A DNA stretch of 64,000 nucleotides, from assembly GCA_965217585.1 (NCBI GenBank), contig OZ244561.1:1632001-1696000 (forward strand), written 5' to 3'. The notes below the pieces were generated by a model. It saw only the letters and a program-made list of their open reading frames with translations, was not told the origin of the DNA and did no database searches. Shown here piece by piece: positions 11,707 through 32,058 of this stretch (positions within the stretch are counted from its first letter, which is position 1; each line of letters opens with the position of its first letter). The DNA is from Candidatus Latescibacterota bacterium. GTDB taxonomy: Bacteria > Latescibacterota > UBA2968 > UBA8231. Both the position numbers and the translations under genes were made by a program.

Positions 11707-11723
11707 TGTCAATCCCCCGCGAG

Positions 11724-11758
11724 AAAAACTGCGCGGCGCACGTCTTGTGCGCCGCGCA
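11724..11758 (-). terminator. Intra-cluster rho-independent terminator or stabilising hairpin
   Basis: 12-bp perfect stem TGCGCGGCGCAC/GTGCGCCGCGCA, 5-nt loop, followed by GTTTTT on the minus strand. Confidence 0.75.
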
Positions 11759-11768
11759 ACGGTCGAAC

Positions 11769-12791: not shown

Positions 12792-12831
12792 GGAATAGTC
12801 TCCTGTTTCTCCCTTTGAGATCCTGTGCACC

Positions 12832-15800: not shown

Positions 15801-16122
15801 TCTGACCGCCTACGCGCAGGTCTTGGTCATTGCCGTCCTGGACCCGCCCACCCCAGATGATGCCGTCCTGGAAGATGACTTGGTCGGTCGAGCGCGGGTA
15901 GGTCACGCCCGAATTGCTGTTGAGCGGGTTGCGGGCCGACCAGCCATCGCTTTGGATCCACATGGCCATATTATTGATGTTGAGCAGGGTCCGTTGAGTG
16001 GACACCTCGATCTCATCTTGGGCCAGTTTGGCGGCCGGTGCGCCCCGCCCTTCGCGGGCCTGGACAGTGCCGACTAGGAGCAAGAGCGTCGCCGCCGCAA
16101 ATAGGTAAACAAACTTTCTCAT
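12832..16122 (-). CDS. Large acidic secreted protein with a T9SS type-A C-terminal sorting domain
   Basis: Signal peptide; C-terminal INVFPNPY...IRIFDMSGTLVRTI...WDLQNQNQLPVASGMYI...KLAVI; DxDGNG Ca-binding-like motifs; FN3-like segment. Confidence 0.85.
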   Translation of the reverse strand: MRKFVYLFAAATLLLLVGTVQAREGRGAPAAKLAQDEIEVSTQRTLLNINNMAMWIQSDGWSARNPLNSNSGVTYPRSTDQVIFQDGIIWGGRVQDGNDQDLRVGGQTYEIGTVPGVIESKGVAQDRETARLYRIRRDWATADLRLDASEVLNIGLSQVTAAHEEAVRAQYERDWTEWPAELGAPYYDNDGNGQYDPSVDEPGLANADQVIWFAINDLDQGATTNLYGSLPIGLETQVTLWGYARSDALGDVIFKKYKIIYKGTAEATDDAVIEDMYFAQWSDPDLGDFGDDFAGADVGLSLGYVYNSIDDDSHYVTFGLAPPAAGYDFLQGPIVPVYQLDDDGNIAVDEEGNQLLDESSVAIFNDGLRPGYKNLPMTAFVYFAAGSAISDPELGEYIGTQQWYNLLRGFQPQDDVENPVPYTNPLTNADTKFTLDGDPTRATGWNDGVPLPAGDRRIVLATGPFEMALGDTQEVVVALLGAISSDRLRSVSKLKFTDQFVQDAYNSFFQVPKPPTQPNVRLVELDQTIVLNWGWDPESVAKTESVGSPGFDFEGYNVYQLPSAEATLGQATKIATFDLVNGVTTILGIALDEQSGVVLDVPLQIGNDSGLQRYITMTSDAIRGGPLVNGQQYYFAVTAYSRATSAEAATTTTLESSPQSIICVPQVAPPGITRTHEDPGELLPVEHTKGIGDASVWAQVIDPTALQQAAYKVTFNDDATWSLSRGGEILVDRESNISLDESYPIVEGLQVKVGNLVFTNPTTYISAEVTNDANPEDGDLHLWSDGTLFGFPDGYGSTFWDGGGAGDNRLVRDIEFRFTGVWDADSTAIVEGGSMATLGGVSGGSGERDIAAHPFKPAEVSDSTGAFLQRVPFEIWDVEDPDNPRQLNAVFYDRGADGSRDEDSVVYHQTYNMPGRDYITIVHTDYDPTKIHELTDENTTWVYFFYQGGASVWSTGDVIKITIGNTVVAGEDEFEFSVTAEAYSEALAKENIGKINVFPNPYLGVNSAETSRYSHFVTFNHLPPKANIRIFDMSGTLVRTIEKDDPSQFTRWDLQNQNQLPVASGMYIAHIELPGTGMSRILKLAVIQEQQFLESF

Positions 16123-16137
16123 AGCTTCCTCTCTTTC

Positions 16138-19100
16138 CTAGAAATCGAACTGCAGACCGAAGCGAATCTGGCGCGGCGCGTCGTAGATATCGCCGCCCTC
16201 GTTGGACCAGTAGGCTTGGCGGTTGGCCAAGTTGATCGCCTCGTAGAGTTGCACGTACTGTTGCCCGCCGCTGGCCTCGACGATCTGCTGACTCAGCTCC
16301 GGGTTGGTCAGGAAGCCATCGTCCTTGTCGGTGCCGGTGCGGTTGTACACGTTGAGCACGTTCTTGCGGTTGAAGAGGTTGATAACATAGCTATAGACCT
16401 TGGCGTTGAGACCAAACAGCGAGAAGCCCTTGTCGAGGCGCAGGTTGGTCTTGAAGGTCCACGGCGTCGTCGAGCGGTTGATCGACTCGAGCGGCTTGCG
16501 CGAGCGCGGGTCGAAGCTGTCGAGTACACCGGCGTTTTCTGGACCGCGCTGACCGATCGAACCGGTGACCAAGGTAAAATTGTGTCCGCTCGTGAAGCTC
16601 AGCAGCAGGTTGGCCCCCAGACTCCGCAGAAGTGGGTTGGGCTCGTTGTCGGGGTAGCGGTAGTCTAGGTAGATCGAGCCGCGGTGCGTCTCGTTAAAGT
16701 CGAGCGGCGAGATGATCGTCGGCAGGTTGGTCTCGTTCTCAACCCCGGAAATGGCCGAACCAGTATATGAACCCGTGCCGCGTGCATCGGACAGGGTGTA
16801 GTTCAGTTCGGTCCGTAGGTTATTGACGCGCCTGAGCTTGAACTGGAACTCGATGCCCTTGGTCGTGGCGAAGTCGCCGTTTTGCAGATAGGCGTACGCG
16901 CCAGCGTCAACCGCGCTAGCCGAGAGCTGCTGCTTGCGCAACTGCATCTGCCCTTTGACGTCGCGGTAGAAGCCCGTGATGTCGAAGGAGGCGGATTCGG
17001 CGAACTGACGTTCGAAGCCAATTTCGTACTGGGTAGTCCGCATCGGCTCGATGTCGTAGGCGGTCGGATAGCGAATGTAGTTCTGGCCGCCCAACTCTAG
17101 GGCGAGGCGTGCGCCGCCGGCAAACATGGCGCGCATCGCCGGCATTTGCGAGAAACGCCCGTATTGCACGTGAAAAACCGTCAAATCCGACACCGGGAAC
17201 GACATCCCCAAACGCGGGCTAATATCGGTGTACGTGGCGGTCTTTTCCATCGACGCGAGGTCAATGGTGTAGTTTTCCGGATCGCGCACCGGTGCGGCCG
17301 GGTCCTTGAAGCGCCAGCTATCCGCGTCGAAGTAGTCGATGCGTAGACCGGCGTTGATGATCAGGTCATTATACTCGACTTTGTCCTGGATAAAGACGGC
17401 GGCTACCGTCGGGTGGCGCGGTGCCTCTAGCCCCTCGCCGTCGGCCTCGCGGCCGAACTCGTCGAAGCCGAAGAAATCGCTGGCGCTAGTCGAGCGCAGC
17501 AATCTGATCAGATCCTGCTTGCTACCCTTGCCATCGTCAAGACCCTCGGCTGTCTCGATCAACTCGTCGAGGATCTGGTCTTCGCTGATCTCATCGTTGT
17601 AGTAGCGGTCGTACACCGCGTCCAACTCGGGATAGGTATTGGCTATCCCCGAGCGGATCGAACGCAACGAGATCCCATAGCGCCGCGAGGTCCAATTCTG
17701 GTAGTCGAAACCGGCCCTGATCTGATGCACGTCGGTCTGCTTGGTCCAGCTACCGGCCAGCCCCCAATAGCCATCCGACGTGGTGCCGTAGGAGGTCGTA
17801 CGCGAACCCGGGCGGTTGAAGGGAAAGCCGGCCAGATCGTAGGGCCTAGGCCCCGAACCCTGCTGGGTATAGGGCGTGTACTCGCCCGTGCCCTCGAGGG
17901 CACGCTGTACGGCAACGCTGTCGTTGTACACCCACCACCGATCCTCGAAAAGCGGGTCGTAGGACGTGGCATCCTGCTTGTAGAGGCTCACGTTGAGTTC
18001 GTAGAACATGCTCTTGTCGAGCAGGTGGGTGAGCTTGGCGTTAATCAGGTTGGAGGACGCTTCCGACTCGACCAAACGCCGGGTGTTAAAAGCATTGCGG
18101 ATGGGCGCTCCGTTGCTTTCAAAACTCCCGTCCGAGTACAGATTCGTGAGGCGGAGCTGGACGGGGTAGTAGTCGAGCAGCAAGGTCCCGTTGAAAATGT
18201 TCCCTACACTACTCGTGTGCGGAATATTGCCGGGCTTGATTTCGAGCTGCTCGATCCGGTCGGGAACGGGATTACCCTCCTCGTCCTCGCCCCAGTGCCG
18301 GCGGCCACCGCGGAGGCCGGTGTCTTCGAGATCCTCGAAGGTAAAACCCGACCAGTAGGTCGGCCAAGAACCGAGGTTGAAGCGCTGACCGGCCAAGAAG
18401 GCGCGAATCTTCTGGCTACCCGCAACCGGACCACCGGCGGTGATCACCTGATTGGAATAGCCGTAGGAATAGGTGCCGAAGCGCTGCTCATAGTCGGAGG
18501 TAAAATTGTCCGACTCAGAGACGATCTCGAAGTCCCAGTCGCTGCCGCCGGTGCGCAACTCTTGCAGGATAATGCCGGCGTTGGCACCGCCGTACTCGGC
18601 GTTGAAGCCGCCGGCCTGGAGCTGGATTTCCTCCAGTGCCTCGACGATCAGTCCCACCGCGCTGGCACCAGTGACCACATTGCGGACGCTGGCCCCCTCG
18701 ACGTAGTAGCCGATCTCGTCGCCGCGCGAGCCACGGATATGCAACGTCCCCTCGTCATCAACCACGCCGGTCTGCAGGGCCAAGACTTGGCCGACGCCTC
18801 GGAGCGGCAGAATCTCGAGATCCTCGGCATCGACGATGCGCACCGCATTGGTGGCGTTTTTGTCGATGATCGGCCGCTCGGCTCGGATTACCACTTCCTC
18901 GACCTGGATATCCGAAGAAGTCAATTCAACGGCGATATTCGTAGTCAGGTCGGCGGAGACCCGCACATCCTCGACGGTATAATCCGCGTAGCCGATATAC
19001 GTGGCCTTGAGGGTGTAGGTACCCGCTGGCACATTGAGAATAAAAAAGCGGCCCTGCTCATCTGCCGTGGCCCCTAGCTTGGTATCTACCACCACGACAT

Positions 19101-19248
19101 TGGCATGGGGCAACCCGTCCCCGGTGGTGGCATCCTTGACGGCACCAGCTATTTTGCCGCCTGTACTGGCCTCGGCCGGAGCCAAGCTCAGCGCAAGCAG
19201 GACGCCCAGTGCGGTCAGGACGCGAAAAACGCCTTCAAACTTGGTCAT
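16138..19248 (-). CDS. TonB-dependent receptor with an N-terminal carboxypeptidase-regulatory-like domain
   Basis: GKIAGAVKD...GATADEQGRFFILNVPAGTY; plug HIRGSR...GGFNAEYG; SPRLG; NLFN; C-terminal PRQIRFGLQFDF. Confidence 0.93.
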   Translation of the reverse strand: MTKFEGVFRVLTALGVLLALSLAPAEASTGGKIAGAVKDATTGDGLPHANVVVVDTKLGATADEQGRFFILNVPAGTYTLKATYIGYADYTVEDVRVSADLTTNIAVELTSSDIQVEEVVIRAERPIIDKNATNAVRIVDAEDLEILPLRGVGQVLALQTGVVDDEGTLHIRGSRGDEIGYYVEGASVRNVVTGASAVGLIVEALEEIQLQAGGFNAEYGGANAGIILQELRTGGSDWDFEIVSESDNFTSDYEQRFGTYSYGYSNQVITAGGPVAGSQKIRAFLAGQRFNLGSWPTYWSGFTFEDLEDTGLRGGRRHWGEDEEGNPVPDRIEQLEIKPGNIPHTSSVGNIFNGTLLLDYYPVQLRLTNLYSDGSFESNGAPIRNAFNTRRLVESEASSNLINAKLTHLLDKSMFYELNVSLYKQDATSYDPLFEDRWWVYNDSVAVQRALEGTGEYTPYTQQGSGPRPYDLAGFPFNRPGSRTTSYGTTSDGYWGLAGSWTKQTDVHQIRAGFDYQNWTSRRYGISLRSIRSGIANTYPELDAVYDRYYNDEISEDQILDELIETAEGLDDGKGSKQDLIRLLRSTSASDFFGFDEFGREADGEGLEAPRHPTVAAVFIQDKVEYNDLIINAGLRIDYFDADSWRFKDPAAPVRDPENYTIDLASMEKTATYTDISPRLGMSFPVSDLTVFHVQYGRFSQMPAMRAMFAGGARLALELGGQNYIRYPTAYDIEPMRTTQYEIGFERQFAESASFDITGFYRDVKGQMQLRKQQLSASAVDAGAYAYLQNGDFATTKGIEFQFKLRRVNNLRTELNYTLSDARGTGSYTGSAISGVENETNLPTIISPLDFNETHRGSIYLDYRYPDNEPNPLLRSLGANLLLSFTSGHNFTLVTGSIGQRGPENAGVLDSFDPRSRKPLESINRSTTPWTFKTNLRLDKGFSLFGLNAKVYSYVINLFNRKNVLNVYNRTGTDKDDGFLTNPELSQQIVEASGGQQYVQLYEAINLANRQAYWSNEGGDIYDAPRQIRFGLQFDF

Positions 19249-19284
19249 GTGTTCCTCCTTTGTAGGGTAGTTCTCAATACCCCT

Positions 19285-19998
19285 TCACATCAGATGCAAC
19301 CAGTCTCCTAAGAGAAAGGTCACACGCCCGATCAACAGCGAAACCCTCGCCATAATGGTGTAACCAAACGAGGCCCCAAACGAGACCATCAAAAACCATA
19401 TCCCCACCTTGGAGATATGACCCGCCGCGCCGGTGTGCTCGACGGAAAAGAAGAAATAAACCAACACCCCTACTACCCCCACTAAGACGATCAGCAAATT
19501 GAGCCCCTCCAAGCTCCAAGTTAGTGGTTGTAATGTAGGTTCAACTTGGGCCAAGATAAAGGAAGAAATATATCGGGGAATCGTCAGGCCGGCCCCGAGC
19601 CCCACAAAGAATGCAAAGGCATAGCGGCTGAGCCAACCAAAGCGCAGCGAAAAGCGCGTCAACATCAACAGCCCGAGCACCGTGGGAGCCAAAAGCCACC
19701 AATTGGGCGTCTCCCCTTCCCCCGGATCGGTCCATTCGGCGATGAGCTCGCCGTAGATCGTCGGGTACCAAGTCTGGCCGAATATATACGCCGCCGCCAC
19801 GCCGACAAAAACGTGCTCGGCGAACTTGAACAGCGGGTTGTCCTTGTAGAGGAAGCTATAGAGCGCCAAGGTCATGCCCGCCGCGACAATGATGCCCAAA
19901 CCCGTCCAGTCCGCCGCCAAAATCCCACTGGCCACCAAGCCGATATTGACCGCGGCAAACAGCAGGATCACGCCCAAAAAGACATTCGTATCGCGCAT
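19285..19998 (-). CDS. Uncharacterised polytopic membrane protein (about 7 TM) of the GlmL-like module
   Basis: Hydrophobic segments throughout; YSFLYKDNPLFKFAEHVFVG; SD GAGGAG; alternative start TTG 20010. Confidence 0.8.
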   Translation of the reverse strand: MRDTNVFLGVILLFAAVNIGLVASGILAADWTGLGIIVAAGMTLALYSFLYKDNPLFKFAEHVFVGVAAAYIFGQTWYPTIYGELIAEWTDPGEGETPNWWLLAPTVLGLLMLTRFSLRFGWLSRYAFAFFVGLGAGLTIPRYISSFILAQVEPTLQPLTWSLEGLNLLIVLVGVVGVLVYFFFSVEHTGAAGHISKVGIWFLMVSFGASFGYTIMARVSLLIGRVTFLLGDWLHLM

Positions 19999-20006
19999 GG
20001 CGGCGA

Positions 20007-20837
20007 TCAACTCCTCTGCTCGGATGAAGTTCGCCGAGCGGCGAAGTGCGCGATATTGCCGAGAATCACGAAGATCGCGATGACCAAATGAGCCATTGAC
20101 TGGGCGCTCATGCCTTTGCTGGCACTGCCAGGACGTTCAATCAGGGTCTCGTATTCGGCTGCGCCGGCTAGACCACCGAGCAGGCCGCCGAGCTGTCCCG
20201 AGTCGAGGAAGGGATAGAGATCGGGAGCCATCACCGCGGTGCAGCCAGCGACAAAGGGAAAGCCGTACTTCTCCTGCCCGTAGGGGATCCACCAGAACTC
20301 AATCGAATCCCCGGCAGCTAAGTCTAAGACGAGGGCGAAATCGCGCAGCGAGCGCAAACCGCGCGTCAAATCCAAGTCGCCAGTATCCGCGCCCCATTGG
20401 TCCTGCGGGAAGGCACTGCGGAAGTCCTGCCCCATATTGAGAATGACGCTAAAACCGCCCGGCTTGTAGCCCATAAAGGCATAATCCACCCCGTACTCCA
20501 AATCGAATTCAGCCGCTATCTCCTCCAGTACCTGTTGGGCCAGCCCCGGTGCCTCGGGCCACAGGCAAATGGCCACCACCTTGAGGTCGCGGCGGAAGGC
20601 GTGGCGCAAAATGGCATGCGACATCGGCAGCATTTCAGGTGCCGTGCTGGCACCGTAAGCAAAGGAAACCAGCACAATGTCCCCTGCGTCGAGTTTCTCG
20701 AACTGGTCGTACGCGGCTTTTACTTCGTCCGTCGGCGTGATCGGCAGGGACATCCCGGCCAGCAACGGCCCAGCCACGCTGATAAACACTAGGGCGAAAA
20801 TGATGCGACGGTCGATAGCGAGCAGTCTGTGCATCAC
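20007..20837 (-). CDS. Uncharacterised membrane-anchored alpha/beta protein (N- and C-terminal TM) of the GlmL-like module
   Basis: TM-soluble domain-TM layout; YGVDYAFMGY, PFLDSGQLGGLLGGLAGAAEYE; start overlaps the upstream stop. Confidence 0.8.
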   Translation of the reverse strand: MMHRLLAIDRRIIFALVFISVAGPLLAGMSLPITPTDEVKAAYDQFEKLDAGDIVLVSFAYGASTAPEMLPMSHAILRHAFRRDLKVVAICLWPEAPGLAQQVLEEIAAEFDLEYGVDYAFMGYKPGGFSVILNMGQDFRSAFPQDQWGADTGDLDLTRGLRSLRDFALVLDLAAGDSIEFWWIPYGQEKYGFPFVAGCTAVMAPDLYPFLDSGQLGGLLGGLAGAAEYETLIERPGSASKGMSAQSMAHLVIAIFVILGNIAHFAARRTSSEQRS

Positions 20838-21490
20838 TCAGCTCCTCCGCCCAAATACGAGCGCTCAATCCCAAAAATGATCCGCAGTGAGGTAGCAATA
20901 GCACCCAGCGACACGCCGAGCAGGATGCCGCGCTTGGCCGCCAAGTTGGGCACGGTCAACAGCCAATCGGACACCAGCGGAAAATACTCGGATATCTCCC
21001 GGCCAATGGGCACGCGACCCAGCATGACGATGACCGCCGCGACCAGTAGCAGCGCGGCCTCGGGCGTGCGGGCGCGGAAAGTTCGGTATGCCGCCGAGGC
21101 AATAAAGAAGGCCAGAAGCGAAAACATGGTCCCAGCACAGGGAAGGTGGACGTAGTCGAAGAGCCACTTATAGCCCCCGGCCTCAGCTTGCGCGACGAAG
21201 GGGCCCAAGCCGTCGTTGTACACGACGAAGCCCATCATCACCGCGAAGCTTAAAATGGCGATCAAGCTATAGGCCCAGCCGGCGACGCGCTGGCGAATCC
21301 GCTGCCAGTGCAAGTTGAGCAGGCTATAGAGGCCGAGCAAAAAGGAAAACGCGAAGACGATGCGCACCCATAGCGCCATCTCTCGCTCCAAACTCTGCGC
21401 GTGGCCGTGGGGTATGTAGTAGATGACAATGCCGAGCATACCGAAGGCGAAGGCGACGACCAGCGGCAAAGTTCGACTAAGAAAAATCAT
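20834..21490 (-). CDS. Uncharacterised polytopic membrane protein (about 6 TM) of the GlmL-like module
   Basis: Hydrophobic segments; TMFSLLAFFIASAAYRTFRAR, LRIIFGIERSYLG; SD GGAGG. Confidence 0.8.
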   Translation of the reverse strand: MIFLSRTLPLVVAFAFGMLGIVIYYIPHGHAQSLEREMALWVRIVFAFSFLLGLYSLLNLHWQRIRQRVAGWAYSLIAILSFAVMMGFVVYNDGLGPFVAQAEAGGYKWLFDYVHLPCAGTMFSLLAFFIASAAYRTFRARTPEAALLLVAAVIVMLGRVPIGREISEYFPLVSDWLLTVPNLAAKRGILLGVSLGAIATSLRIIFGIERSYLGGGAE

Positions 21491-21499
21491 CGCGCCCTC

Positions 21500-22744
21500 C
21501 TAGGGGCTAAAAAAGTGCGTCAACTGCGGCCACCACTCCAAGGTCGCCAGCAGCGTACCCAGCACTAAGACAGCCAGCAGAATGGCCTTACCGGCATCTT
21601 GGCCCTTGAGACTGCCCAGCATCCGCGGTTCGCCCGACAGATAAGCACTGGCTGCGTAGAGCTCTTCGCCGAGCAGGGTATAGTCGCAGGTAGTAATAAA
21701 GAACGGCAACTGGGTGAAAGCATCGGTGCCGGCGATCTGGATCGCCCCGGTCGTCGCCCCGGTCTCGGCTAACAGCAGCGACTCGGCGTAGAAATATCCC
21801 ATCATAATGTGAGCCGCCGGACGGTCGCGGACCATAATGCCCTCGACTGCCGCCGCATAGCTGAACTGCTCGGTGCTAGCGACAAAGACGTGGTCGGGAT
21901 TGAAAGCGTCGGGCCGTCCCGCCTCCACATACGAGGCTTTCACCGTCTCTTGGCTGACAGACATAACTACTGGGTCTGGAGCCACCACCCGCAGCGCGGT
22001 GTCGTATTCGGCCGTGCGCCGCGCGACCCGCCCCAAGATATTGACCGCGGCAATGGTCGGTATCTGGCTCATGTCGCGCAGGCCGTGAATGAAAAGCACC
22101 GGCTTGCCCATCTCGGTCGCCCGCCCCAGTGCCTCGTCGAGTGCCTCTAACCCGGCGATGCGGCGGATCTTGAGTTCGCGCCGCCGCGCAATGCCAATGT
22201 AGCCCATGATAAGCCCTGAGAACACAAGGCATAGTACCAGATTATTGGTCTTGGCGCGATTGAAAAGATTGCCTGTGGACTCGGCGTTGACGATCACCTT
22301 GCCGCGGATCGCGCCCCCGGCCGATCGCACATCGACGTGAAAGTAATAGGTCTTGCCGTCTTCTAGCGGCGTCTTGCCGCCCGCGCCGGCGAAATCCTCG
22401 ACGTTGACATAGTGGTGATTCCCCAGATCGGCCCCACGCCCAAAAAGCGCCGGTGCCTCGGACATCAAATTCTTCGTGGCCGCAACCTCGGCCACGACGC
22501 GAAAAGGTCCGCTGGGCGAGTCGGCGATGGCGACCTGATACATCGCATTTTCGCTGATCTGCTGATCTCGCGGCCAAGTCAGCGTAATGCTGCCGCCGCC
22601 GTCGTTGGGCGTGTCGAAGGCTTGGACCTCGATCGGCGGCCTAGGGTGTGCCAGCAACGCGCCGAGCCCTTGTTCCGCATTTTCCGCCGCGCTCGCCAAC
22701 GGCCAAGCCAAGACTAATGAAGCCAGCCAGTTTTTTGCTCTCAT
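21500..22744 (-). CDS. Membrane protein with a signal peptide, FN3-like periplasmic domain and DUF6754-like C-terminal domain
   Basis: Signal peptide; DTPNDGGGSITLTW...YYF FN3-like part; TM; IRRIAGLEALDEALGRATEMGKP...QLPFFITTCDYTLLGEELYAASAYLS; C-terminal TM (family name recalled, not searched). Confidence 0.8.
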   Translation of the reverse strand: MRAKNWLASLVLAWPLASAAENAEQGLGALLAHPRPPIEVQAFDTPNDGGGSITLTWPRDQQISENAMYQVAIADSPSGPFRVVAEVAATKNLMSEAPALFGRGADLGNHHYVNVEDFAGAGGKTPLEDGKTYYFHVDVRSAGGAIRGKVIVNAESTGNLFNRAKTNNLVLCLVFSGLIMGYIGIARRRELKIRRIAGLEALDEALGRATEMGKPVLFIHGLRDMSQIPTIAAVNILGRVARRTAEYDTALRVVAPDPVVMSVSQETVKASYVEAGRPDAFNPDHVFVASTEQFSYAAAVEGIMVRDRPAAHIMMGYFYAESLLLAETGATTGAIQIAGTDAFTQLPFFITTCDYTLLGEELYAASAYLSGEPRMLGSLKGQDAGKAILLAVLVLGTLLATLEWWPQLTHFFSP

Positions 22745-22748
22745 ACCT

Positions 22749-23864
22749 TTATTCCTCAATCAACTCCACATTTGCCCGTGGCACTACCGCCTGTTTCCCG
22801 TCTTCAAACTCCACGGCCAATACCCGCACTCGCGCCCCAGACTCCACCGCGCACAACTCGGTCGGCAAGTCACTGACGCGCCCAATCCGCCCAAAATAGG
22901 GCATCCGAATCACCCGCAACAAATCACCCACCTGCAACCCTTCCGCGCCCGCCCGCACCTCTTCTTCCTCTTTGTCAGCAGCTGTGGGGACGATAATCTC
23001 CGGCCGCAACACACCGGCGCGGATCTGGGTCGCTCCAGCCATGGACGCATCCATGCCAGCGCACGCTTGCAAAATATCAAAAGTCTTGCGGGCCATGGCG
23101 ACGCGGCCGAAGCCCTCGGTCGCTACCACCGTCAGGCCGATTTGCTCGGTGCCGGTGATGGCCACGCCCAAATCGCGGCCGAGCAGGTCGCGCAAGTCGC
23201 GGTCGCGCAGGCCGCCGCCGATCAACCCCACAGCACCTGCCTGCCGGGCCTGTTCCACGGTCTCCGTGCTAATCAGACTGCCAACCACTACAATCTTGCC
23301 CGCCACTTCCGGTCCCAGCGGCCCGGCGATGGCGTCTGGGGCCTCAACCGCCAAGTGCAGCGCGCCCCAGCACTCGCCCCCTACGCCGAAAATGCCCTGG
23401 ATATAAGCACCTCGCGCTACGACGCGCACGCCCTCCTCGGCAAAAACTTCCTCGACGACCCCATCCACGTACGCTAGTACTTCGACCGGCTTAGGCGCTT
23501 GGCGCAGTATCACCTGCCCAGTCACTGGCGAAATGCTCTCAACGGTGCCGCTGACCGGCGATTCAACTGTGGCCTTGAACCACCGAATAAATGGCCTAGT
23601 CTCGGCGAGTGGCTCGCCGGCTTCGACTCGGTCGCCCTCTTGTTTGAGCATATAGCCAGCTAGCTCTTGCGGCGGGATGCCCAAGCGGTTGACCAAGTTG
23701 AGGGTCGCCACATCGCCCGGCAGTTCGGTGCGGGCCACAACTTGGTCGCGGCGCACTGCTTGGCCGCGCTCGACGACAACTTCGCCTTTGAGGGGCAAAC
23801 GCCGCTCTTTGTGGACGACTGCATATTGCGTCACGCGCAGTCCAGGAGTATAAGCATGGGCCAT
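22749..23864 (-). CDS. Uncharacterised soluble protein with barrel-sandwich-hybrid repeats and a C-terminal KOW-like motif
   Basis: VERGQAV, KQEGDRVEAGEPLAE...ESPVSGTV, AYVDGVV repeats; GATQIRAGVLRPE; LQVGDLLRVIRMPYFGRIGRV. Confidence 0.8.
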   Translation of the reverse strand: MAHAYTPGLRVTQYAVVHKERRLPLKGEVVVERGQAVRRDQVVARTELPGDVATLNLVNRLGIPPQELAGYMLKQEGDRVEAGEPLAETRPFIRWFKATVESPVSGTVESISPVTGQVILRQAPKPVEVLAYVDGVVEEVFAEEGVRVVARGAYIQGIFGVGGECWGALHLAVEAPDAIAGPLGPEVAGKIVVVGSLISTETVEQARQAGAVGLIGGGLRDRDLRDLLGRDLGVAITGTEQIGLTVVATEGFGRVAMARKTFDILQACAGMDASMAGATQIRAGVLRPEIIVPTAADKEEEEVRAGAEGLQVGDLLRVIRMPYFGRIGRVSDLPTELCAVESGARVRVLAVEFEDGKQAVVPRANVELIEE

Positions 23865-23867
23865 GAG

Positions 23868-25649
23868 CTACTCGTATAGGTTTAACGCCTGCTGCCAGCC
23901 GCTTATCTGACGCCGGCGGTCGCGGTCTGTCACCATCTGGATGGGTCGCCCGCGGCCATCCAGCACTAGCCCTACGACCCCGCCGCGCACCCGCGCATTT
24001 AGGGCCTGCCCCGGGCCAGCACCCACATCCCAACGCCGCGCCGGCTGGAGTGAGACTTCGACCTCCTCGCCGTCGGCCAAGGGCATCCACTGTAGCTGGC
24101 CGACCTGCAATTGGCCGATTTGACTCCCGCTGGGCAGGTCTATTTCGTATTGGAGGCAAACCTCGCCGTCCTTACCCTCGCCGACGGGAGCCACACAAGT
24201 GCCCAAGTAGATCAGGCAATCGCGCTCAAAAACCTCGGTGGCGGCTCGCTCGTCAACAGTCGAGAGCACCCCCAAGTGAGGCATCATAAAGATGCTATCG
24301 ACCGCCAAGCGGGTGACACCTGCGGGCTGGAAGGCATCTATGAGCATGGCGCAACTTTGCTCGCGGCGAGGCGCGTGCGAGAGCACGCCACCGCTGCCGA
24401 CTAACATGTCTAGCGCCATCATCTCGACTAAGCTCTCGCCGGTGGCCTCCTGTTCAAAGACATCGGCCAGCGTGCGCTTGCTCTGCACCCCCTTCAACCC
24501 CACTGCCAACGCCCGGTGCTGGTCAAAGGCCAAGCGCAGAGCCTCGCGGGCAATGGCTTGCTCGACTTGCAATTCCTGCATGAGCTGCGGGATGGTCGTC
24601 GGGCGGATCATCTTGTTTTTGATCCGGTCGCGGAGGTCGGCCTCCTCAATGTCAAAGGGAACCCAGCGCATGATGTGGTCGAGGCCGGCCTCGGCCAGCA
24701 CGTTGGAGACGCTATAGGACATGCCGAGATTGGCACTGACCGTGCGGTTGAACACGCCGTCGAAGACGCTGAACACGTCGGTCGTCGCCCCGCCGATATC
24801 CACACCGACGACGTTGATCCCCTGCTGGCGGGCAATGGTCTGCATGATTTGGCCCACCGCCCCGGGCGTCGGCATAATCGGTGCGCCGGTCCAGCCCATC
24901 AGCTTGCGGTAGCCAGGCGCTTGCGCCATGACGTGTTCGAGGAAAAGGTCGTGAATGACGTGCCGCGCCGGGTCCAGATTTTCCTCTTCGAGCACGGGGC
25001 GGATATTCTCGGTAACGGTCAGGGCCATCTTCCCCCCCAGCGCCTTTTCGACCTCCTCGCGCGCGTCCTCATTGCCCGCAAAAATAACCGGCAACTTAAA
25101 GCCCGCGCCAAAGCGGGGCTTGGGATCGGCCGCGCTGATGAATTCGGCCAACTCGACCACATGGCTGACGGTGCCGCCATCCGTGCCGCCCGACAGCAAT
25201 ACCATATCGGGGCGCAATTGGCGGATGCGCTCTATCTTTTCGTGCGGTAAGCGCCCATCATTGGCGGCGAGCGCGTCCATGACGATCGCCCCGGCACCCA
25301 AGGCGCAACGCTGCGCGCTCTCGCCGGTCATCGCCAGCACCACGCCGGCCACCACCATCTGTAACCCGCCGCCGGCACTGCTCGTCGAGATGTAGATATC
25401 AACCCCGACATCGCCGTCTGCCGGAGTGATGATCCGCTCGCCATCGAGGATCTGCCGCCCAGAAAGCTCCTCGACCTCTTGAATGGAGTTAAGCATCCCC
25501 CGGGTGACATCCTCAAAGGGGGCCTCGACCGTGGTTGGGGCCTCGCCGCGAAAGGTCTGGCGATACCCTTCGTCCTTCTTTTCGATCAGGATCGCCTTGG
25601 TCGTCGTACTGCCGCAGTCGGTGGCGATAACTACGTTGAGGTCATCCAT
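23868..25649 (-). CDS. GlmL/MutL(glutamate-mutase)-like ASKHA (actin/Hsp70-fold) ATPase with a C-terminal extension
   Basis: Phosphate-1 DCGSTTTK, SSAGGGL, GGTDGG, IMPTPGAV, phosphate-2 DIGGATTD, RTVSANLGMSYS, adenosine GSGGVL. Confidence 0.85.
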   Translation of the reverse strand: MDDLNVVIATDCGSTTTKAILIEKKDEGYRQTFRGEAPTTVEAPFEDVTRGMLNSIQEVEELSGRQILDGERIITPADGDVGVDIYISTSSAGGGLQMVVAGVVLAMTGESAQRCALGAGAIVMDALAANDGRLPHEKIERIRQLRPDMVLLSGGTDGGTVSHVVELAEFISAADPKPRFGAGFKLPVIFAGNEDAREEVEKALGGKMALTVTENIRPVLEEENLDPARHVIHDLFLEHVMAQAPGYRKLMGWTGAPIMPTPGAVGQIMQTIARQQGINVVGVDIGGATTDVFSVFDGVFNRTVSANLGMSYSVSNVLAEAGLDHIMRWVPFDIEEADLRDRIKNKMIRPTTIPQLMQELQVEQAIAREALRLAFDQHRALAVGLKGVQSKRTLADVFEQEATGESLVEMMALDMLVGSGGVLSHAPRREQSCAMLIDAFQPAGVTRLAVDSIFMMPHLGVLSTVDERAATEVFERDCLIYLGTCVAPVGEGKDGEVCLQYEIDLPSGSQIGQLQVGQLQWMPLADGEEVEVSLQPARRWDVGAGPGQALNARVRGGVVGLVLDGRGRPIQMVTDRDRRRQISGWQQALNLYE

Positions 25650-25977
25650 GCTTTTGGCTTTCGCGCTGGGCAATGGCCTCCGCGAGCAAGTCTATGCTCT
25701 GGCGTCGCTCCAACATGTGCGTAAAGCGCTGGTACTCGTCGCGCGAAAAAACCAGCGTGGCAAACGGGGCTAAAAAGGTCAGGGCTTGGCTGCCCAAAAA
25801 GTTGAGGGGACGGCAAGCCTCCAACGCCATGGACGCTGCCGCTCCCATGCGGCGACGTACTATAAACTCGGCCAGCCGCTCGGCGAGCGCGCGCTCGTCC
25901 TCAGACCAACCCGTCTCCGGGTCTTCGAGGGCAAAAGCGTGCCGCCACTGCGTTTTTAAGCTATTGACTTGGAACAT
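25642..25977 (-). CDS. Hypothetical protein (about 111 aa)
   Basis: Overlaps both neighbours; LEACRPLNFLGSQAL core. Confidence 0.7.
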   Translation of the reverse strand: MFQVNSLKTQWRHAFALEDPETGWSEDERALAERLAEFIVRRRMGAAASMALEACRPLNFLGSQALTFLAPFATLVFSRDEYQRFTHMLERRQSIDLLAEAIAQRESQKHG

Positions 25978-26377
25978 GGCACCGGACGAAGCGCGCAACT
26001 TCTTCGCGGTTTTGATCGCACCGCAAAAAGACGCCGCGAAAAGAGTCCAGCCGACCCGGGCGGGCGGAAGGACGCAAAAAAATACCGTCCCGATGCTCGT
26101 CTGCTCGACGGAATTCCGCCCAAGAACGACGCTGTTTAAGGCCGAGATGTTCGCTGCTTATCCCTTCGCCGTCGAGCGCGTAGCGCGTAGCAAAGAAATA
26201 GCGCGACAGCGAGACGGTCAAGGCTCCCAGTGAAAACACCCCATAAAACCAATGCTCAAAACCAAACGCCGCCGCCGCTGAGGAAGCGACGATGAGCGCG
26301 ACTAGCAGTATCGACTTGGCCGGCCTCTCCCGGCGCAGGGGGTGGCTCTCCCAGCGAAGGACGTCTGTGGAGGACAC
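25961..26377 (-). CDS. Small membrane protein (2 TM plus a beta-rich soluble domain)
   Basis: GTG start after the SBP stop; two hydrophobic helices followed by YALDGEGI...RRSWAEF. Confidence 0.7.
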   Translation of the reverse strand: MSSTDVLRWESHPLRRERPAKSILLVALIVASSAAAAFGFEHWFYGVFSLGALTVSLSRYFFATRYALDGEGISSEHLGLKQRRSWAEFRRADEHRDGIFLRPSARPGRLDSFRGVFLRCDQNREEVARFVRCHVPSQ

Positions 26378-26392
26378 GGAGGACGCGTCCTA

Positions 26393-28234
26393 TTAGTACA
26401 TCTGCTCTTCCTGCGCGACCCACCAGTCTTGCAAGCGGACACCGGGGGGATACCAAGTGACGCCGCTGAAGCGCCGACTATAGGCTTGGGACGAGCGCGA
26501 CTTCCACATGAAGGTGTACGGCTGTTCTTCGCGTAGGATCTCCTGAAAGCGGCGATAGAGCTCGATGCGCTTATCCACGTCAAACTCGCGGCGGTAGGAC
26601 TCCAAGATGTTATCAACTTCGTCGTTGATAAAGCTCACGTGGTTGGAGCCGTTTTTTACCGCTTGGGAGGAATGCCAGATCTGGTAGCCGTCGGGAGCAA
26701 AGCGCAGGCTGCCGGTCCAGCCCAACACTATTGCGTCAAAATCCTTGCTCTTGACCTTTTGCAGGAAGATCGACCAGTCTAGCTCGCGCACTTGACAGTC
26801 AATGCCGATATCTTGCAACTCGTATTGGACCGTCAGGGCGATGTCTTTGCGAATCTGGTTGCCCGAGTTGACCAAGATCTCAAAGCTAAATGGCACCAAC
26901 TCCCCATCGATGGTCTTGTCGAGAATGCCGTCCTCGTCGGCGTCCGCCCAGCCAGCCTCTGCGAGCAGGTCGAGGGCGTGGTCGGGATCATACGTGTACG
27001 GCGCGAGGGCGTGGTTGTATTCGGGGCGGAACTTGTTGATCGGCCCCTCCACCGTCTCGGCCAAGCCGAACATGATGTTCTCCACCATGCCTTCTCGGTC
27101 GGTCAAATAGGTCATGGCTTGGCGCACCTGCTTATCGCCGAAAATCGGATGGTTGTTGTTCCACCCTATGTACATATAACCCTCGGAGTAGCTGACGCCT
27201 TTGAGGAAGCGGCGGTTGAAGTCGTCCGACCAACTCTTTTCCTTGAACTCCAGAGGACGCAGGCTGTGGTAGTCGAGGTGGCCGTTGGTCAGCTCGATGA
27301 ACGCCGCGTCGGTATTGTTGATGATGTTAAAGACGATCTTATCGACAAAGCCGGGCGGCAGCAGCCCTTCCACATCCCGACCCCAGTAGTTTTCATTCCG
27401 CGTCAGCACGACCTTCTGCTGAGTGACCAAATCGCGCTCTGGATCTTCAATCATGTACTGCCCCGACCCGAGAGCCTTGCGATTGAAATTTTGGTTGAAC
27501 TGTTCAGCAAAGCGCTGGACTCGTTCCTTGTGCGGCCCCTCCTCCCAAGAGCCATCCACCAAGCTCTTAAAATCGACCGAATCCATCAGCCCCTCTGGGT
27601 CGTAGAAATGCTTAGGCAGGATGGAGAAGCCGCCCAAGATCAGGTCATTGCGGAAATAAGGCTCGCGGCAAAGGAAGCGAATCTTGTTGGTGCCCACGAT
27701 CTGCACGTCCCGGACGGTAGCATAGTAGTTGCGCAGATGCGGCGCTAGCACTTGGGGGTTGTGGATGACCTTCATGCTGAAGACTACATCCGCAGCCGTC
27801 AGCGGCTTGCCGTCTGAGAAGTACACTCCGTCGCGCAACTCAAACGTGTACGTCAGTTTGTCCTCAGCAATCTCTGGATAGCCGACGGCCACCCAGCCCC
27901 GCAGGTTGTACGGGGGATCATGGTCAGCGTCGAGCAGGGTCTCAAAAATATGCCCCAGTACCTGGCTAGCACTGGCATCGCTGGAGGTGTACGGGTTGAG
28001 CTTTTCGGGGTCGGACAGCATGTGACGCACCATCCAGTCGCCGTGGGTCGGCTCTTCACCTCCCTCGTAGCGCAGCGGCACCTTTTCGGTGCCGTCGAGT
28101 ACGACGATATCTTTGGTACTCATGAGAATTTCCTGCACTACTTCCCATGCTGAAGAGGGGTCATGGGAAGTAGTGCAGGAAATGACGCAGACGCCCAACC
28201 AAGCGGCCACAACGAACATTTTAACTTTCGGCAT
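26393..28234 (-). CDS. Peptide ABC transporter substrate-binding lipoprotein (family 5)
   Basis: Lipobox VISC; DPEKLNPY, YTFELRDGVYFSDGKPLTAADVVFS, VRQAM, YDPDHALDLLAEAGW. Confidence 0.93.
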   Translation of the reverse strand: MPKVKMFVVAAWLGVCVISCTTSHDPSSAWEVVQEILMSTKDIVVLDGTEKVPLRYEGGEEPTHGDWMVRHMLSDPEKLNPYTSSDASASQVLGHIFETLLDADHDPPYNLRGWVAVGYPEIAEDKLTYTFELRDGVYFSDGKPLTAADVVFSMKVIHNPQVLAPHLRNYYATVRDVQIVGTNKIRFLCREPYFRNDLILGGFSILPKHFYDPEGLMDSVDFKSLVDGSWEEGPHKERVQRFAEQFNQNFNRKALGSGQYMIEDPERDLVTQQKVVLTRNENYWGRDVEGLLPPGFVDKIVFNIINNTDAAFIELTNGHLDYHSLRPLEFKEKSWSDDFNRRFLKGVSYSEGYMYIGWNNNHPIFGDKQVRQAMTYLTDREGMVENIMFGLAETVEGPINKFRPEYNHALAPYTYDPDHALDLLAEAGWADADEDGILDKTIDGELVPFSFEILVNSGNQIRKDIALTVQYELQDIGIDCQVRELDWSIFLQKVKSKDFDAIVLGWTGSLRFAPDGYQIWHSSQAVKNGSNHVSFINDEVDNILESYRREFDVDKRIELYRRFQEILREEQPYTFMWKSRSSQAYSRRFSGVTWYPPGVRLQDWWVAQEEQMY

Positions 28235-28267
28235 ATTCTTCCCTTTGTACTAGCTATACCAAATCCA

Positions 28268-29188
28268 TCACACGAAGGTCAACCATCCGTGCCGATCCTC
28301 GACTTCGACGCGAACCACTGCGAAAAAGGCGTCTTGTATCTGCGCCGTGATCGGCCCGCACTTCCCACAGCCGATCGGCACTTGGTCGACGGCACGGATC
28401 GGCGTGATTTCGGCGGCCGTGCCGGTGAAGAACACCTCGTCGGCGATGTAGAGGAACTCGCGCGGAATACCGCGTTGCTCTACTCGCATTCCCAGATCGC
28501 GTATCAGGGTAATGGCGGTGTGGCGGGTGATGCCCGGCAGGATGGCAAAACACGATTCGGGCGTGTAGATCGAGCCGTTCTTGATGACAAAGATGTTCTC
28601 GCCGCTGCCCTCGCTCACCAACCCATCCGTTCCCAAGACAATGCCCTCGTCATAGCCGTTCGCATTGGCTTCGATCCGCACGAGCTGCGAGTTGAGGTAG
28701 TTGCCGCCCGCCTTAGCCAAGGCGGGAAACGTATTCGGGGCCATGCGATTCCACGACGAGGTGCAGACCGAAACGCCGTTTTTGAGCGCCGCCTCTCCGA
28801 GGTACTCTCCCCACTCCCAAACGGCGATCACTACATCAACCGGGCATCCCATCGGATCAACTCCCAAGTTCTCATAGCCGCGGAAGACGATCGGGCGGAT
28901 ATAGCAGGCCGCGAGTTGGTTGACGCGGATCGTCTCGAGGATGGCCTCTCTGATTTCCTCGCGCGTATAGGGAATTTCCATGCGGTAGATTTTGGCGGAA
29001 TCAAATAGCCTATTGACGTGCTCGTCGAGGCGGAATACGGCCGAGCCTTTCGCGGTCTTGTAACAGCGAATGCCTTCAAAAACGCTCGAGCCGTAGTGTA
29101 TTACATGGGAGAGCACGTGGATCTTGGCGTCGTCCCAATCGACCAATTGGCCATTGAACCAGATTTTATCGCATTTGGGCAGGGGCAT
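28268..29188 (-). CDS. ilvE: Branched-chain amino acid aminotransferase
   Basis: [48 protein letters not shown]; SD AAGGAG. Confidence 0.96.
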
Positions 29189-29263
29189 GTAGAGAATCTC
29201 CTTGGGCAAGCATGCGATTAATTAAGGTAACACCGCTGCGAAACCGTTACCAGTGTTAAGCAA

Positions 29264-31234: not shown

Positions 31235-32058
31235 AGCCCCTCCTTGCCTAAGCGCGAGTAGGCGTCGCCCAGCCGGATGAATTCCTCTAGCGACAATTCC
31301 TCCGGGCGGCGCGTTAATTCGATACCCGCCTGCTGGCCTAGCTCTTGCAGCCAAGGCCGGCCCCCCTCGGGATTGAGGCCGAGGAGCGAATTGCGCAGCA
31401 TCTTGCGCCGCTGGCCAAAGGCTCGGCGCACCAAGCGGTCAAAACAGCCCACGTCCTTTACTGCATAGCGGGGCTTGGGGGCAAAGCGCAGTTCGACTAC
31501 GGCCGAATCCACCGCCGGCACAGGCCGGAAGCAATCGCGCCCCACCTGCAAGTGCATCTCCACTTCGGCTCGCATAGCCACCAGCACCGACAGCAAGCTG
31601 TAATCCTTTGAACCGGGGCTAGCGACCAAGCGCTGAGCCACTTCGCGTTGGACCATGACGATGGCACGGCTGATACAACCGGCGTGTGCGATGAGGTGAA
31701 AGATCAGCGGAGCGGTGATATTGTAGGGAAGGTTGCCGACAATCAGCAGCCGATGACCGCCCGCGTCCCGCAGAACCTCCCCGAGATCGACTTGCAGAAT
31801 ATCTCCTTCGATCAAGCGCAACCTACACGCGTCTTGGCGTGCGCACAGCAAGGCCACCAAGTCGCGGTCGATTTCCACGGCCACTAGGCGATCCACAGAA
31901 GCGAGCAGCACCTCGGTCAACGCGCCCCGGCCCGGGCCAATCTCGACGACCACCTCGCCAGCGGCCGGGCGCACCAGCCCAGCAATGGCCTCTATGACAC
32001 CTCGGGCGACGAGGAAGTGCTGGGCAAAGCGCCGCCGCGGTCGGTGGGCATTTACCAA
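31231..32058 (-). CDS. rsmA: 16S rRNA m6,2A dimethyltransferase KsgA
   Basis: RFAQHFL, EIGPGRGALT, EIDRDL, GNLPYNIT, MVQREVA, RRKMLRNSL. Confidence 0.95.
   Translation of the reverse strand: MVNAHRPRRRFAQHFLVARGVIEAIAGLVRPAAGEVVVEIGPGRGALTEVLLASVDRLVAVEIDRDLVALLCARQDACRLRLIEGDILQVDLGEVLRDAGGHRLLIVGNLPYNITAPLIFHLIAHAGCISRAIVMVQREVAQRLVASPGSKDYSLLSVLVAMRAEVEMHLQVGRDCFRPVPAVDSAVVELRFAPKPRYAVKDVGCFDRLVRRAFGQRRKMLRNSLLGLNPEGGRPWLQELGQQAGIELTRRPEELSLEEFIRLGDAYSRLGKEGL

Follow-up and report, generated by a model that had tools for sequence, protein, structure and literature searches.

Introduction

GlmL/MutL is described, in a passage of PMC4682846, as a chaperone for reactivating glutamate mutase. 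In this paper we analyse a gene module built around an ATPase of the same family, which we call A, in a stretch of 64,000 nucleotides from Candidatus Latescibacterota bacterium (contig OZ244561.1, positions 1,632,001 to 1,696,000 of the forward strand). This whole stretch is referred to as the window, and coordinates are positions within it unless another locus is named. We find that the module is a conserved unit of eight genes and that it is not a glutamate-mutase accessory; A is predicted to form a single cytoplasmic ATPase unit with its soluble partner, B. The eight genes, with protein lengths in amino acids (aa), are listed here in the order in which they are read on the minus strand (-); ORF stands for open reading frame and TM for transmembrane.

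25961-26377 (-): U1, 138 aa; from the ORF list and tblastn conservation
25642-25977 (-): U2, 111 aa; from direct reading of the DNA and tblastn conservation
23868-25649 (-): A, 593 aa; ASKHA ATPase of the MutL/GlmL family, PF13941
22749-23864 (-): B, 371 aa; soluble three-domain partner of A
21500-22759 (-): C, 419 aa; DUF6754 (PF20539)
20834-21490 (-): D, 218 aa; polytopic membrane protein, no family matched
20007-20837 (-): E, 276 aa; TM segments at the N and C termini
19285-20010 (-): F, 241 aa; polytopic membrane protein, no family matched

Besides GlmL/MutL, the closest known systems include the reactivases of B12-dependent enzymes. In an excerpt of PMC7674605, the alpha subunit of the B12-dependent glycerol dehydratase reactivase is an Hsp70-like ATPase joined to a swivelling domain, and ATP hydrolysis releases a subunit. 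By analogy with the DdrAB and GdrAB reactivases, A and B together would supply an Hsp70/actin-type ATPase and a swivelling domain, and the two are predicted to bind each other. Unlike in those reactivases, the swivelling domain sits on B, which is either separate from A or fused to it and which also carries barrel-sandwich and KOW domains; the likeness is one of parts. The module also differs in having no beta subunit and no nearby B12 enzyme, and its presumed client would be membrane proteins.

Three further groups of systems resemble single parts of the module. The barrel-sandwich domain of NqrA and RnfC sits in a peripheral cytoplasmic subunit of a membrane complex, and B carries an RnfC_N/NqrA_N barrel-sandwich domain that scores above the gathering threshold. 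In contrast to Rnf and Nqr, however, B has no flavin or iron-sulphur domains, none of the Rnf/Nqr families in Pfam is matched by D, E or F, and the energy source of the module would be ATP rather than redox. The swivelling fold of B (residues 152-294) is that of the mobile domain of phosphoenolpyruvate (PEP)-utilising enzymes such as enzyme I of the phosphotransferase system and rifampin phosphotransferase, but B lacks the conserved phospho-accepting histidine, and its partner is an ASKHA protein instead of an ATP-grasp protein. Finally, MacB, LolCDE and FtsEX are complexes of the mechanotransmission type, in which cytoplasmic ATP hydrolysis drives periplasmic work. The logic that we propose below for the module would be the same by analogy, but the module has no nucleotide-binding domain of the ATP-binding cassette (ABC) type and no FtsX-type permease, and no homology to these complexes was detected.

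We know of no described system that pairs a GlmL-family ATPase with partners such as these. The original prediction, made from the sequence of the window, had stated that the function of the module was not known to be described; in agreement with this, we found no account of it in the open full-text literature on DUF6754, PF13941, TIGR01319 or glutamate mutase L. The names that source databases give to these proteins are only ‘hypothetical’, ‘DUF6754 domain-containing protein’ or ‘glutamate mutase L’, and the DUF6754 family has no assigned function.

A conserved unit of eight genes

The module was originally proposed to consist of six genes, A to F, separated by gaps of at most 9 bp or by overlaps. 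The ORFs, all on the minus strand, and their junctions bear this out: A and B are separated by 3 bp and C and D by 9 bp, B overlaps C by 11 bp, and the D/E and E/F junctions are overlaps of 4 bp each. All six genes are real and lie where they had been placed, but the six do not make up the full unit, which has two further genes upstream, U1 and U2; the stop codon of U2 overlaps the start codon of A. The conserved unit therefore comprises eight genes in the order U1-U2-A-B-C-D-E-F.

We scanned one genome per species for protein C, which gave at least 599 pattern matches, 557 of them confirmed relatives; the best 80 loci are the basis of all locus counts in this paper. These loci, designated by L and a number, include members of the Latescibacterota, Gemmatimonadota, Planctomycetota (Brocadiales among them) and Handelsmanbacteria, as well as a Bdellovibrionales metagenome-assembled genome (MAG). 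The closest are Latescibacterota, with 86-93% identity. All six genes A to F are present in 66 of the 80 loci, always in the same order and on the same strand, and in 55 they fall within 7 kb. Since the order is kept in so many related loci, the six-gene arrangement is far beyond chance. C-D-E-F are found together in 77 loci, the three exceptions ending at a contig edge, and all eight genes in 60. By tblastn, U1 is present in 62 loci (30-94% identity), upstream of U2 and A, and U2 in 69 (31-95% identity).

We then compared the presence of DUF6754, which marks C, with that of MutL, which marks A, in whole genomes of two phyla. In the following counts the overlaps (both, one only, neither) are our own reading of two match tables per sample, and related genomes are not independent of one another.

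Phylum of the window, 151 genomes: DUF6754 in 126, MutL in 125; both 123, DUF6754 only 3, MutL only 2, neither 23
Planctomycetota sample, 201 genomes: DUF6754 in 53, MutL in 56; both 51, DUF6754 only 2, MutL only 5, neither 143

PF13941 and PF20539 are thus discordant in just 5 of 151 and 7 of 201 genomes, and all five discordant genomes of the first sample are fragmented, four of them being 57-87% complete. Neither family reaches its cut-off in 14 control model genomes. That two phyla show the same pattern of co-occurrence is strong evidence for a link between the ATPase gene and the membrane genes. The gene-neighbourhood check suggested with the original prediction, namely whether the six genes keep company in the absence of a mutase, therefore comes out in its favour across phyla. 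DUF6754 is nearly universal and single-copy in the phylum of the window (126 of 151 genomes), and DUF6754 proteins of near length make up 8000 or more sequence clusters.

In four loci (L064, L075, L077 and L081), 8-10 kb of upstream DNA is available and contains no A; each of these genomes has one A-type gene elsewhere. The genome of L073, in which A adjoins C, served as a positive case in this search for displaced A genes.

Several other arrangements of the module were observed. In the Bdellovibrionales MAG, A and B form a pair of their own behind a gene for an HtrA-like protease (L089:7808-11934), seemingly a few kb from U1-U2-C-D-E-F if the two pieces lie on the same contig, and U1 and U2 stay with the membrane genes instead of with A. 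In some Planctomycetota, C-D-E-F is duplicated in tandem, as in L081:6215-13485, whose genome has a single A-type gene. Six genomes (G256, G317, G170, G206, G246 and G351) hold paired DUF6754 matches about 3.3 kb apart.

The ATPase A and glutamate mutase

Judged by its sequence, A belongs to the MutL family but fails that family's functional context. It matches Pfam MutL (PF13941) with 423.5 bits (E 1.3e-126) over profile positions 1-450 of 450. Its phosphate-1 (DCGSTTTK), phosphate-2 (DIGGATTD) and adenosine (GSGG) motifs are intact, as had been claimed, and each of their residues is invariant in 29 homologues. A thus has in common with GlmL/MutL a full-length family match and invariant ASKHA motifs. 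It differs in that it scores below the cut-offs of both the NCBIfam GlmL equivalog NF040745 (231.2 bits versus 475) and the NCBIfam subfamily TIGR01319 (162.4 bits versus 204.05). A is also longer than usual, since about 115 aa at its C terminus (about residues 480-593) form an additional domain. Compared with a canonical GlmL of 470 aa from the same phylum, it has only 30% identity; its identity to clade members of other phyla is 65-85%. In the loci studied here A never adjoins glmS or glmE, is partnered by B and often fused with it, and co-occurs with DUF6754. A sequence search of solved structures found no relative of A.

It is important to ask whether a mutase that A might serve lies elsewhere in the genome. 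The source genome is one contig of 7.32 Mb, 94.6% complete, and the whole of it contains no match to Met_asp_mut_E. It has one good match to a B12-binding domain, about 3.5 Mb from the module. Closer by, the ORFs of at least 180 aa scanned between 8000 and 34000 include no mutase and no B12-binding domain, which agrees with the earlier observation that none is seen in the window, and the products of the cluster itself (U1, U2 and A to F) contain no B12-binding or mutase/dehydratase domain in Pfam or NCBIfam.

The same holds at the level of the phylum, where Met_asp_mut_E is found in 3 of 151 genomes of our sample versus 125 with MutL. Some genomes of the phylum hold a second, stronger MutL match (500-533 bits, in frames of about 480-530 codons). 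In one relative, a 470-aa GlmL (532 bits) lies directly 3' of a methylaspartate mutase S gene, which passes the NCBIfam equivalog cut-off (197.6 bits versus 110). In the phylum genomes that do have the mutase, it is adjoined by a second, short GlmL. These results support A as a distinct GlmL-like clade that does not travel with glutamate mutase. The original prediction had given A a role other than that of a mutase accessory and had proposed asking whether its clade tracks the mutase elsewhere in the genome; it does not, and it tracks DUF6754 instead. We conclude that the module is not a glutamate-mutase accessory. The label ‘glutamate mutase L’, which genes of the GlmL family routinely receive, is wrong for the clade of A, and it would misdirect metabolic reconstructions of Latescibacterota, Planctomycetota and anammox relatives, Marinimicrobia and others.

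One locus of the same phylum (L088:7435-11377, genome G135) has an ORF of 619 aa behind the genes for methylaspartate mutase S and a short GlmL of the canonical type. This ORF matches no Pfam or NCBIfam family, and no Met_asp_mut_E match is listed for the genome. The ORF may be a divergent mutase large subunit or a wrong ORF call.

Protein B and its partnership with A

Protein B had been described as a soluble barrel-sandwich/KOW protein. Both domains are present in its predicted structure (AlphaFold2, mean predicted local distance difference test, pLDDT, 84.5), and a Kyte-Doolittle scan found no TM segment in either A or B. The earlier description overlooked a third, swivelling domain between them. 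In B, about residues 50-125 thus form a barrel-sandwich hybrid, about 150-295 a swivelling beta/beta/alpha domain and about 307-371 a KOW/SH3-like domain. We compared the model with 48,161 chains using VIA-align, whose stated background is Z 7-8; the leading matches follow, with root-mean-square deviation (rmsd) and aligned length where noted.

B 152-294, swivelling beta/beta/alpha: Enzyme I, 2wqd_A, Z 9.8, rmsd 2.6, 105 aa
B 152-294, swivelling beta/beta/alpha: rifampin phosphotransferase, 5hv1_A, Z 9.1
B 152-294, swivelling beta/beta/alpha: pyruvate kinase C-terminal domain, 2e28_A, Z 8.7
B 152-294, swivelling beta/beta/alpha: aconitase X small subunit, 7cnr_B, Z 8.5
B 51-123, barrel-sandwich hybrid: NqrA, 4u9o_A, Z 7.8, rmsd 2.1, 64 aa, 27% identity
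B 51-123, barrel-sandwich hybrid: RnfC, 8ahx_C, Z 7.7
B 307-371, KOW/SH3: NusG, 1m1g_A, Z 8.7, 54 aa; also NdhS-, PsaE- and PetP-like chains

Since these Z values are just moderately above background, the matches of the model name folds and not functions. Sequence comparisons point the same way for the first domain: B scores 27.9 bits against Pfam RnfC_N (gathering score 25.6) over about residues 50-123, and a search of solved structures gave one weak RnfC match (E 0.02). Foldseek with the whole model told us less than VIA-align and returned weak domain-level matches only, to KOW and barrel-sandwich structures. Among 29 sequences, residues 152-294 contain no invariant or nearly invariant histidine.

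Two independent lines of evidence, natural fusions and complex prediction, argue for a partnership of A and B. First, we found 44 long relatives of B, of which 43 carry PF13941; 39 of these are 989-1022 aa long, the size of A plus B. They come from NCBI, JGI, ENA and Tara records under names that include Neomarinimicrobiota and Planctomycetota. One such protein, checked residue by residue, begins with A, including its motifs and its C-terminal domain, and continues with B from the conserved N-terminal peptide of B onwards.

Second, the multimer prediction that had been suggested as a check was run for the A+B pair, and it gave a high-confidence interface, with ipSAE scores of 0.78, 0.79 and 0.78 in three runs versus 0.00 for the best of 3 controls. 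Scores of this size are reached by 58 of 80 solved complexes and by 2 of 110 mismatched pairs, counts that hold only roughly for A+B because our own alignments were used. The runs share at least 91% of their contacts, with partner pLDDT of at least 84. Since A has no solved relative by sequence, it is unlikely that the predictor was merely reproducing a known complex. On the side of A, the predicted interface comprises an invariant loop (340-360) and the nucleotide-cleft residues 14, 288 and 425-428; on the side of B, it comprises the N-terminal peptide, the barrel-sandwich domain, invariant central loops (220-235, 251-253 and 279-282) and the KOW domain. According to these models, A and B form one cytoplasmic ATPase unit, A·B, in which B lies across the nucleotide cleft of A. 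The predicted interface and the natural fusions offer concrete constructs for biochemistry and cryo-EM.

Other ideas about B were set aside. A gene of the lipoate/biotin ligase family (LplA-B_cat) is present in 13 of the 80 loci, in one arrangement just upstream of U1 (for example L037:922-1797), and at a lipoyl-like position in the barrel-sandwich domain of B, 28 of 29 sequences have lysine (K97). The remaining sequence has arginine, so conservation is not strict, and lipoylation or biotinylation of B was dropped as a main idea. A fusion of B with C, suggested by open frames of about 804-814 codons, was rejected when two examples showed B and C in different frames. One 707-aa protein (P0121) does run from B into the first part of C, but it is a lone read-through from one contig, truncated at its C terminus; it may be an error, and we do not rely on it.

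The membrane proteins

As originally proposed, C, D, E and F are membrane proteins, each with hydrophobic segments in a Kyte-Doolittle scan. C matches DUF6754 (PF20539) with 376.8 bits against a cut-off of 27. It has TM segments at 172-192 and 387-411 and a signal-peptide-like N terminus. The model of C is good for residues 37-166 only, the DUF6754 part having pLDDT below 50; these residues have an FN3 fold (Z 12.3 to 5z06_B, rmsd 1.7, 90 aa), and many other FN3 domains match at Z 10.5-12. Because the N terminus resembles a signal peptide and a basic stretch follows the segment 172-192, the positive-inside rule would give C a signal peptide, a periplasmic FN3 head and a cytoplasmic DUF6754 domain. 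In the ESM Atlas the DUF6754 part has no usable match once its own family is excluded.

The head of C is variable. We found 671 DUF6754 proteins of at least 735 aa; among the 120 of them that were listed, 33 carry beta-propeller families of the PQQ type and 5 carry fn3. In the long forms of C the FN3 head is replaced. In one planctomycete locus, two DUF6754 proteins of 1312 and 1276 aa (L092:858-4796 and L092:7942-11772) have N-terminal regions of about 1000 aa without a Pfam match, and a gene for an OmpA-family coiled-coil protein lies between the two copies.

D has about six hydrophobic segments and is 44-80% identical over 33 homologues. In E, N- and C-terminal TM segments surround a domain of about 200 aa that would be periplasmic; E falls into unnamed clusters only of the ESM Atlas, the commonest phyla being Latescibacterota, Fidelibacterota and Chloroflexota. 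F has several hydrophobic segments. Neither Pfam nor NCBIfam has a family that matches D, E or F, and searches of solved structures with profiles of C, D, E and F returned nothing meaningful. Of the small proteins, U1 has a hydrophobic stretch at 19-42 by the Kyte-Doolittle scale, which by eye appears as two spans followed by a tail of about 80 aa, and U2 has a central hydrophobic stretch. No Pfam family scores above its cut-off in either, and U2 has no NCBIfam family. We conclude that C to F, and probably U1 and U2 as well, are membrane proteins and that their domains lie on either side of the membrane. Six of the eight proteins of the module are without an informative family, and none has a tested function. 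PADLOC assigned none of the eight to a defence-system family. A suspected paralogy between C and E and between D and F was discarded, as profile-profile comparisons gave no detectable homology.

Neighbouring genes

The module is flanked by the following features.

26393-28234 (-): family-5 solute-binding protein gene (SBP_bac_5, 251 bits), ending 15 bp before U1
16138-19248 (-): G, SusC-like TonB-dependent receptor, after a 36-bp gap from F
12832-16122 (-): H, 1096 aa, with a sorting tail of the type IX secretion system (T9SS), after a 15-bp gap from G
11769-12830 (-): I, PorV/PorQ-family protein, after a 1-bp gap from H
11728-11760 (-): terminator-like hairpin from a consensus scan, 14-bp stem with 10 G-C pairs and a T tail
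9279-10574 and 8235-9278 (-): Opp/Dpp-type ABC permeases (BPD_transp_1, OppC_N), in the next transcription unit downstream

The hairpin probably ends the transcription unit after gene I, and it is a strong one, separating the permease genes from the unit of the module. The set of families G-H-I is lineage-specific, occurring in just 21 of the 80 loci.

The binding-protein and permease genes belong to a wider pattern that the original prediction overlooked: 55 of the 80 loci contain at least one ABC gene of the Opp/Dpp/Nik type (Pfam: SBP_bac_5, permease or oligo_HPY ATPase). Three arrangements can be distinguished. In 26 loci, as in the window, a binding-protein homologue lies on the same strand less than 1.5 kb upstream of A; in 23, one of them from Brocadiales, two oligo_HPY-tailed ATPases directly follow F; and in 6, A and B are split apart by genes for a binding protein and permeases. 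A complete importer of this type has a binding protein, two permeases and two oligo_HPY-tailed ATPases; the window has the binding protein and two permeases and no oligo_HPY ATPase. The eight strongest oligo_HPY matches of the source genome form four pairs, all far from the window. The scores of the ABC genes all fall below the NCBIfam equivalog cut-offs, and the substrate of the importer therefore cannot be named. The ABC link suggests that importer and module share a physiological task.

Other families recur around the module as well. A gene for a TolB-like PD40 protein follows it in 20 of the 80 loci, and the family of a class IV aminotransferase gene located upstream in the window is found in 25. 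Flanks of the Planctomycetota and Bdellovibrionales loci have no common theme beyond the module itself. Upstream of the aminotransferase and binding-protein genes, a minus-strand ORF of 696 aa (29264-31354), which matches no Pfam or NCBIfam family, is kept in 25 of the 80 loci.

Proposed mechanism and alternatives

We regard the module as a new kind of system whose function is unproven; it may be an accessory of a known ABC importer. Our leading interpretation is that the eight proteins form one system in which the A·B ATPase powers a membrane assembly, acting together with the neighbouring ABC importer, and we consider the case for it to be evenly balanced. The steps would be as follows. B would grip the clade-specific invariant loop of A (340-360) across the nucleotide cleft. 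ATP binding and hydrolysis in A would then move the swivelling domain of B, as in the Hsp70-like reactivases of B12 enzymes. The work would pass to an assembly in the inner membrane that contains C to F and probably also U1 and U2, perhaps through the free, clade-specific C-terminal domain of A or through U1 and U2. On its periplasmic side this assembly would expose protein-binding domains, an FN3 domain in the present case and a beta-propeller or a large extension in related proteins, and these heads, together with the importer, would engage a substrate or partner. Most likely the system would work alongside the Opp/Dpp-type importer to take up or handle a substrate of peptide-like nature at the envelope. 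Three parts of this proposal are inferred: that A·B is coupled to the membrane proteins, which way the energy flows, and what the substrate is.

Within this interpretation, a more specific version has the module as an undescribed ATP-powered envelope machine, found in many little-studied phyla, in which A·B does mechanical work on a membrane complex of four to six proteins whose interchangeable heads capture a substrate or partner and pass it to the importer. We offer this version tentatively, as somewhat less likely than not. If it is true, A would be the first GlmL-type ‘reactivase’ whose client is a membrane complex and not a B12 enzyme. More generally, if A·B drives a membrane complex, then it would represent a new way of coupling ATP to envelope work, and the roles of reactivase-type ASKHA ATPases would be wider than has been supposed.

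A number of observations weigh against reading the eight proteins as one powered assembly. The original prediction had cast A as the cytoplasmic engine of a membrane complex; the distinct clade, the co-occurrence and an A-B interface are supported, but no reliable fusion or prediction ties A·B to C-F, and there is no direct evidence that joins them. The A+B score is itself the model's own confidence, obtained with our alignments. In C-F, no transport, channel or motor motif was recognised. In some genomes (the four loci without an adjacent A mentioned above) A and B lie apart from C-D-E-F, so that a separate function is possible. As for the importer, the flanks that were fetched contain no ABC gene in 25 of the 80 loci, the window has no oligo_HPY ATPase gene, and, the 80 loci being related, the ABC link is not independent in every case. 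Near-identical sequence in RNA libraries bridges the junctions of the genes (see below), but such contigs neither prove transcription or a single transcript nor exclude carry-over of DNA.

The recurrent ABC association opens a rival possibility: A·B and C-F may both belong to an import pathway without forming one self-contained machine. A·B would be a soluble ATP-dependent enzyme, a phosphotransfer pair or a chaperone pair that acts on the imported substrate or on the importer, and C-F, U1 and U2 would be a separate membrane complex of the same pathway, for transport or processing; the genes would share operons through physiology, with no physical coupling of energy. The importer genes do interleave with the module, and A·B can sit apart from C-F, as this account would have it. 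A phosphotransfer role would suit the central domain of B, which is folded like the mobile domains that carry out phosphotransfer in enzyme I and rifampin phosphotransferase, but that domain has no invariant histidine. Also in favour of this account are a weak match of A to the hydantoinase/oxoprolinase family (24.8 bits) and the class IV aminotransferase gene upstream, whose family is present in 25 of the 80 loci. However, the presence and absence of A and DUF6754 are almost perfectly matched in two phyla, which is tighter than usual for loose links of this kind, and the 25 loci without a nearby ABC gene tell against this account as well. We hold it to be unlikely, though it is the strongest of the rivals.

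Less probable still is an envelope-sensing or assembly device, in which C is receptor-like, its variable head binds an envelope protein or polymer, and A·B is the cytoplasmic output or regulator, for instance in positioning or gating. The system would then serve envelope biogenesis, surface-protein handling or signalling rather than the import of nutrients. Such a device would account for the variety of periplasmic heads, which range from FN3 to BamB-like beta-propellers and large extensions, including the planctomycete DUF6754 proteins of 1276-1312 aa with an OmpA-family gene between the copies. The unit of the window also runs into SusC-like, T9SS-cargo and PorV-family genes, and the TolB-like PD40 protein follows the module in other loci, but these outer-membrane neighbours are lineage-specific (21 and 20 of the 80 loci, respectively). 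Moreover, Pfam and NCBIfam searches recognised no signalling domain in any of the eight proteins.

By analogy with the MreB-MreC-MreD and MamK systems, A might instead be a membrane-tethered actin-like element that polymerises and is anchored by the membrane proteins. The fold family of A, its 65-85% identity across phyla, and the combination in one operon of a polytopic membrane protein with a bitopic one that bears a periplasmic domain would all be compatible with a filament. We know of no filament in the GlmL family, however, and B is predicted to cover the nucleotide cleft of A as a 1:1 partner and is often fused to it, so that an enzyme or chaperone unit fits better; we think a filament very improbable.

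Least credible of all, and already largely refuted, is the conventional role, in which A would reactivate a B12-dependent mutase or other radical enzyme encoded elsewhere and the membrane genes would be incidental: membership of PF13941, the chaperone function in glutamate mutase reactivation given for GlmL/MutL in the cited passage of PMC4682846 and the one good B12-binding domain match of the source genome speak for it, but Met_asp_mut_E is absent from that genome and rare in the phylum (3 versus 125 of 151 genomes for MutL), the genomes that have the mutase hold a second, short GlmL beside it, and A tracks DUF6754 instead.

RNA libraries

Sequence closely related to the cluster is present in RNA libraries. 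Sponge metatranscriptome runs hold 24-46% of the sampled words of the cluster, and four runs from three studies were compared with the window over 11000-29500. Their contigs cover the whole module at about 95% identity. One contig of 8884 nt spans 19553-28448, from F through the binding-protein gene; another, of 9137 nt, spans 13774-22913, and a third, 5535 nt long, reaches from 22908 to 28448. In runs X1 and X2 the coverage of the region is in pieces only. Contigs from these libraries bridge F into the downstream genes G-H-I.

At about 28448-28450, contigs of runs X2, X5 and X9 stop matching the window and continue with sequence that is similar among them and unlike that of the window. This suggests that, in the strains sampled there, the gene upstream of the binding-protein gene is not the one seen in the window.

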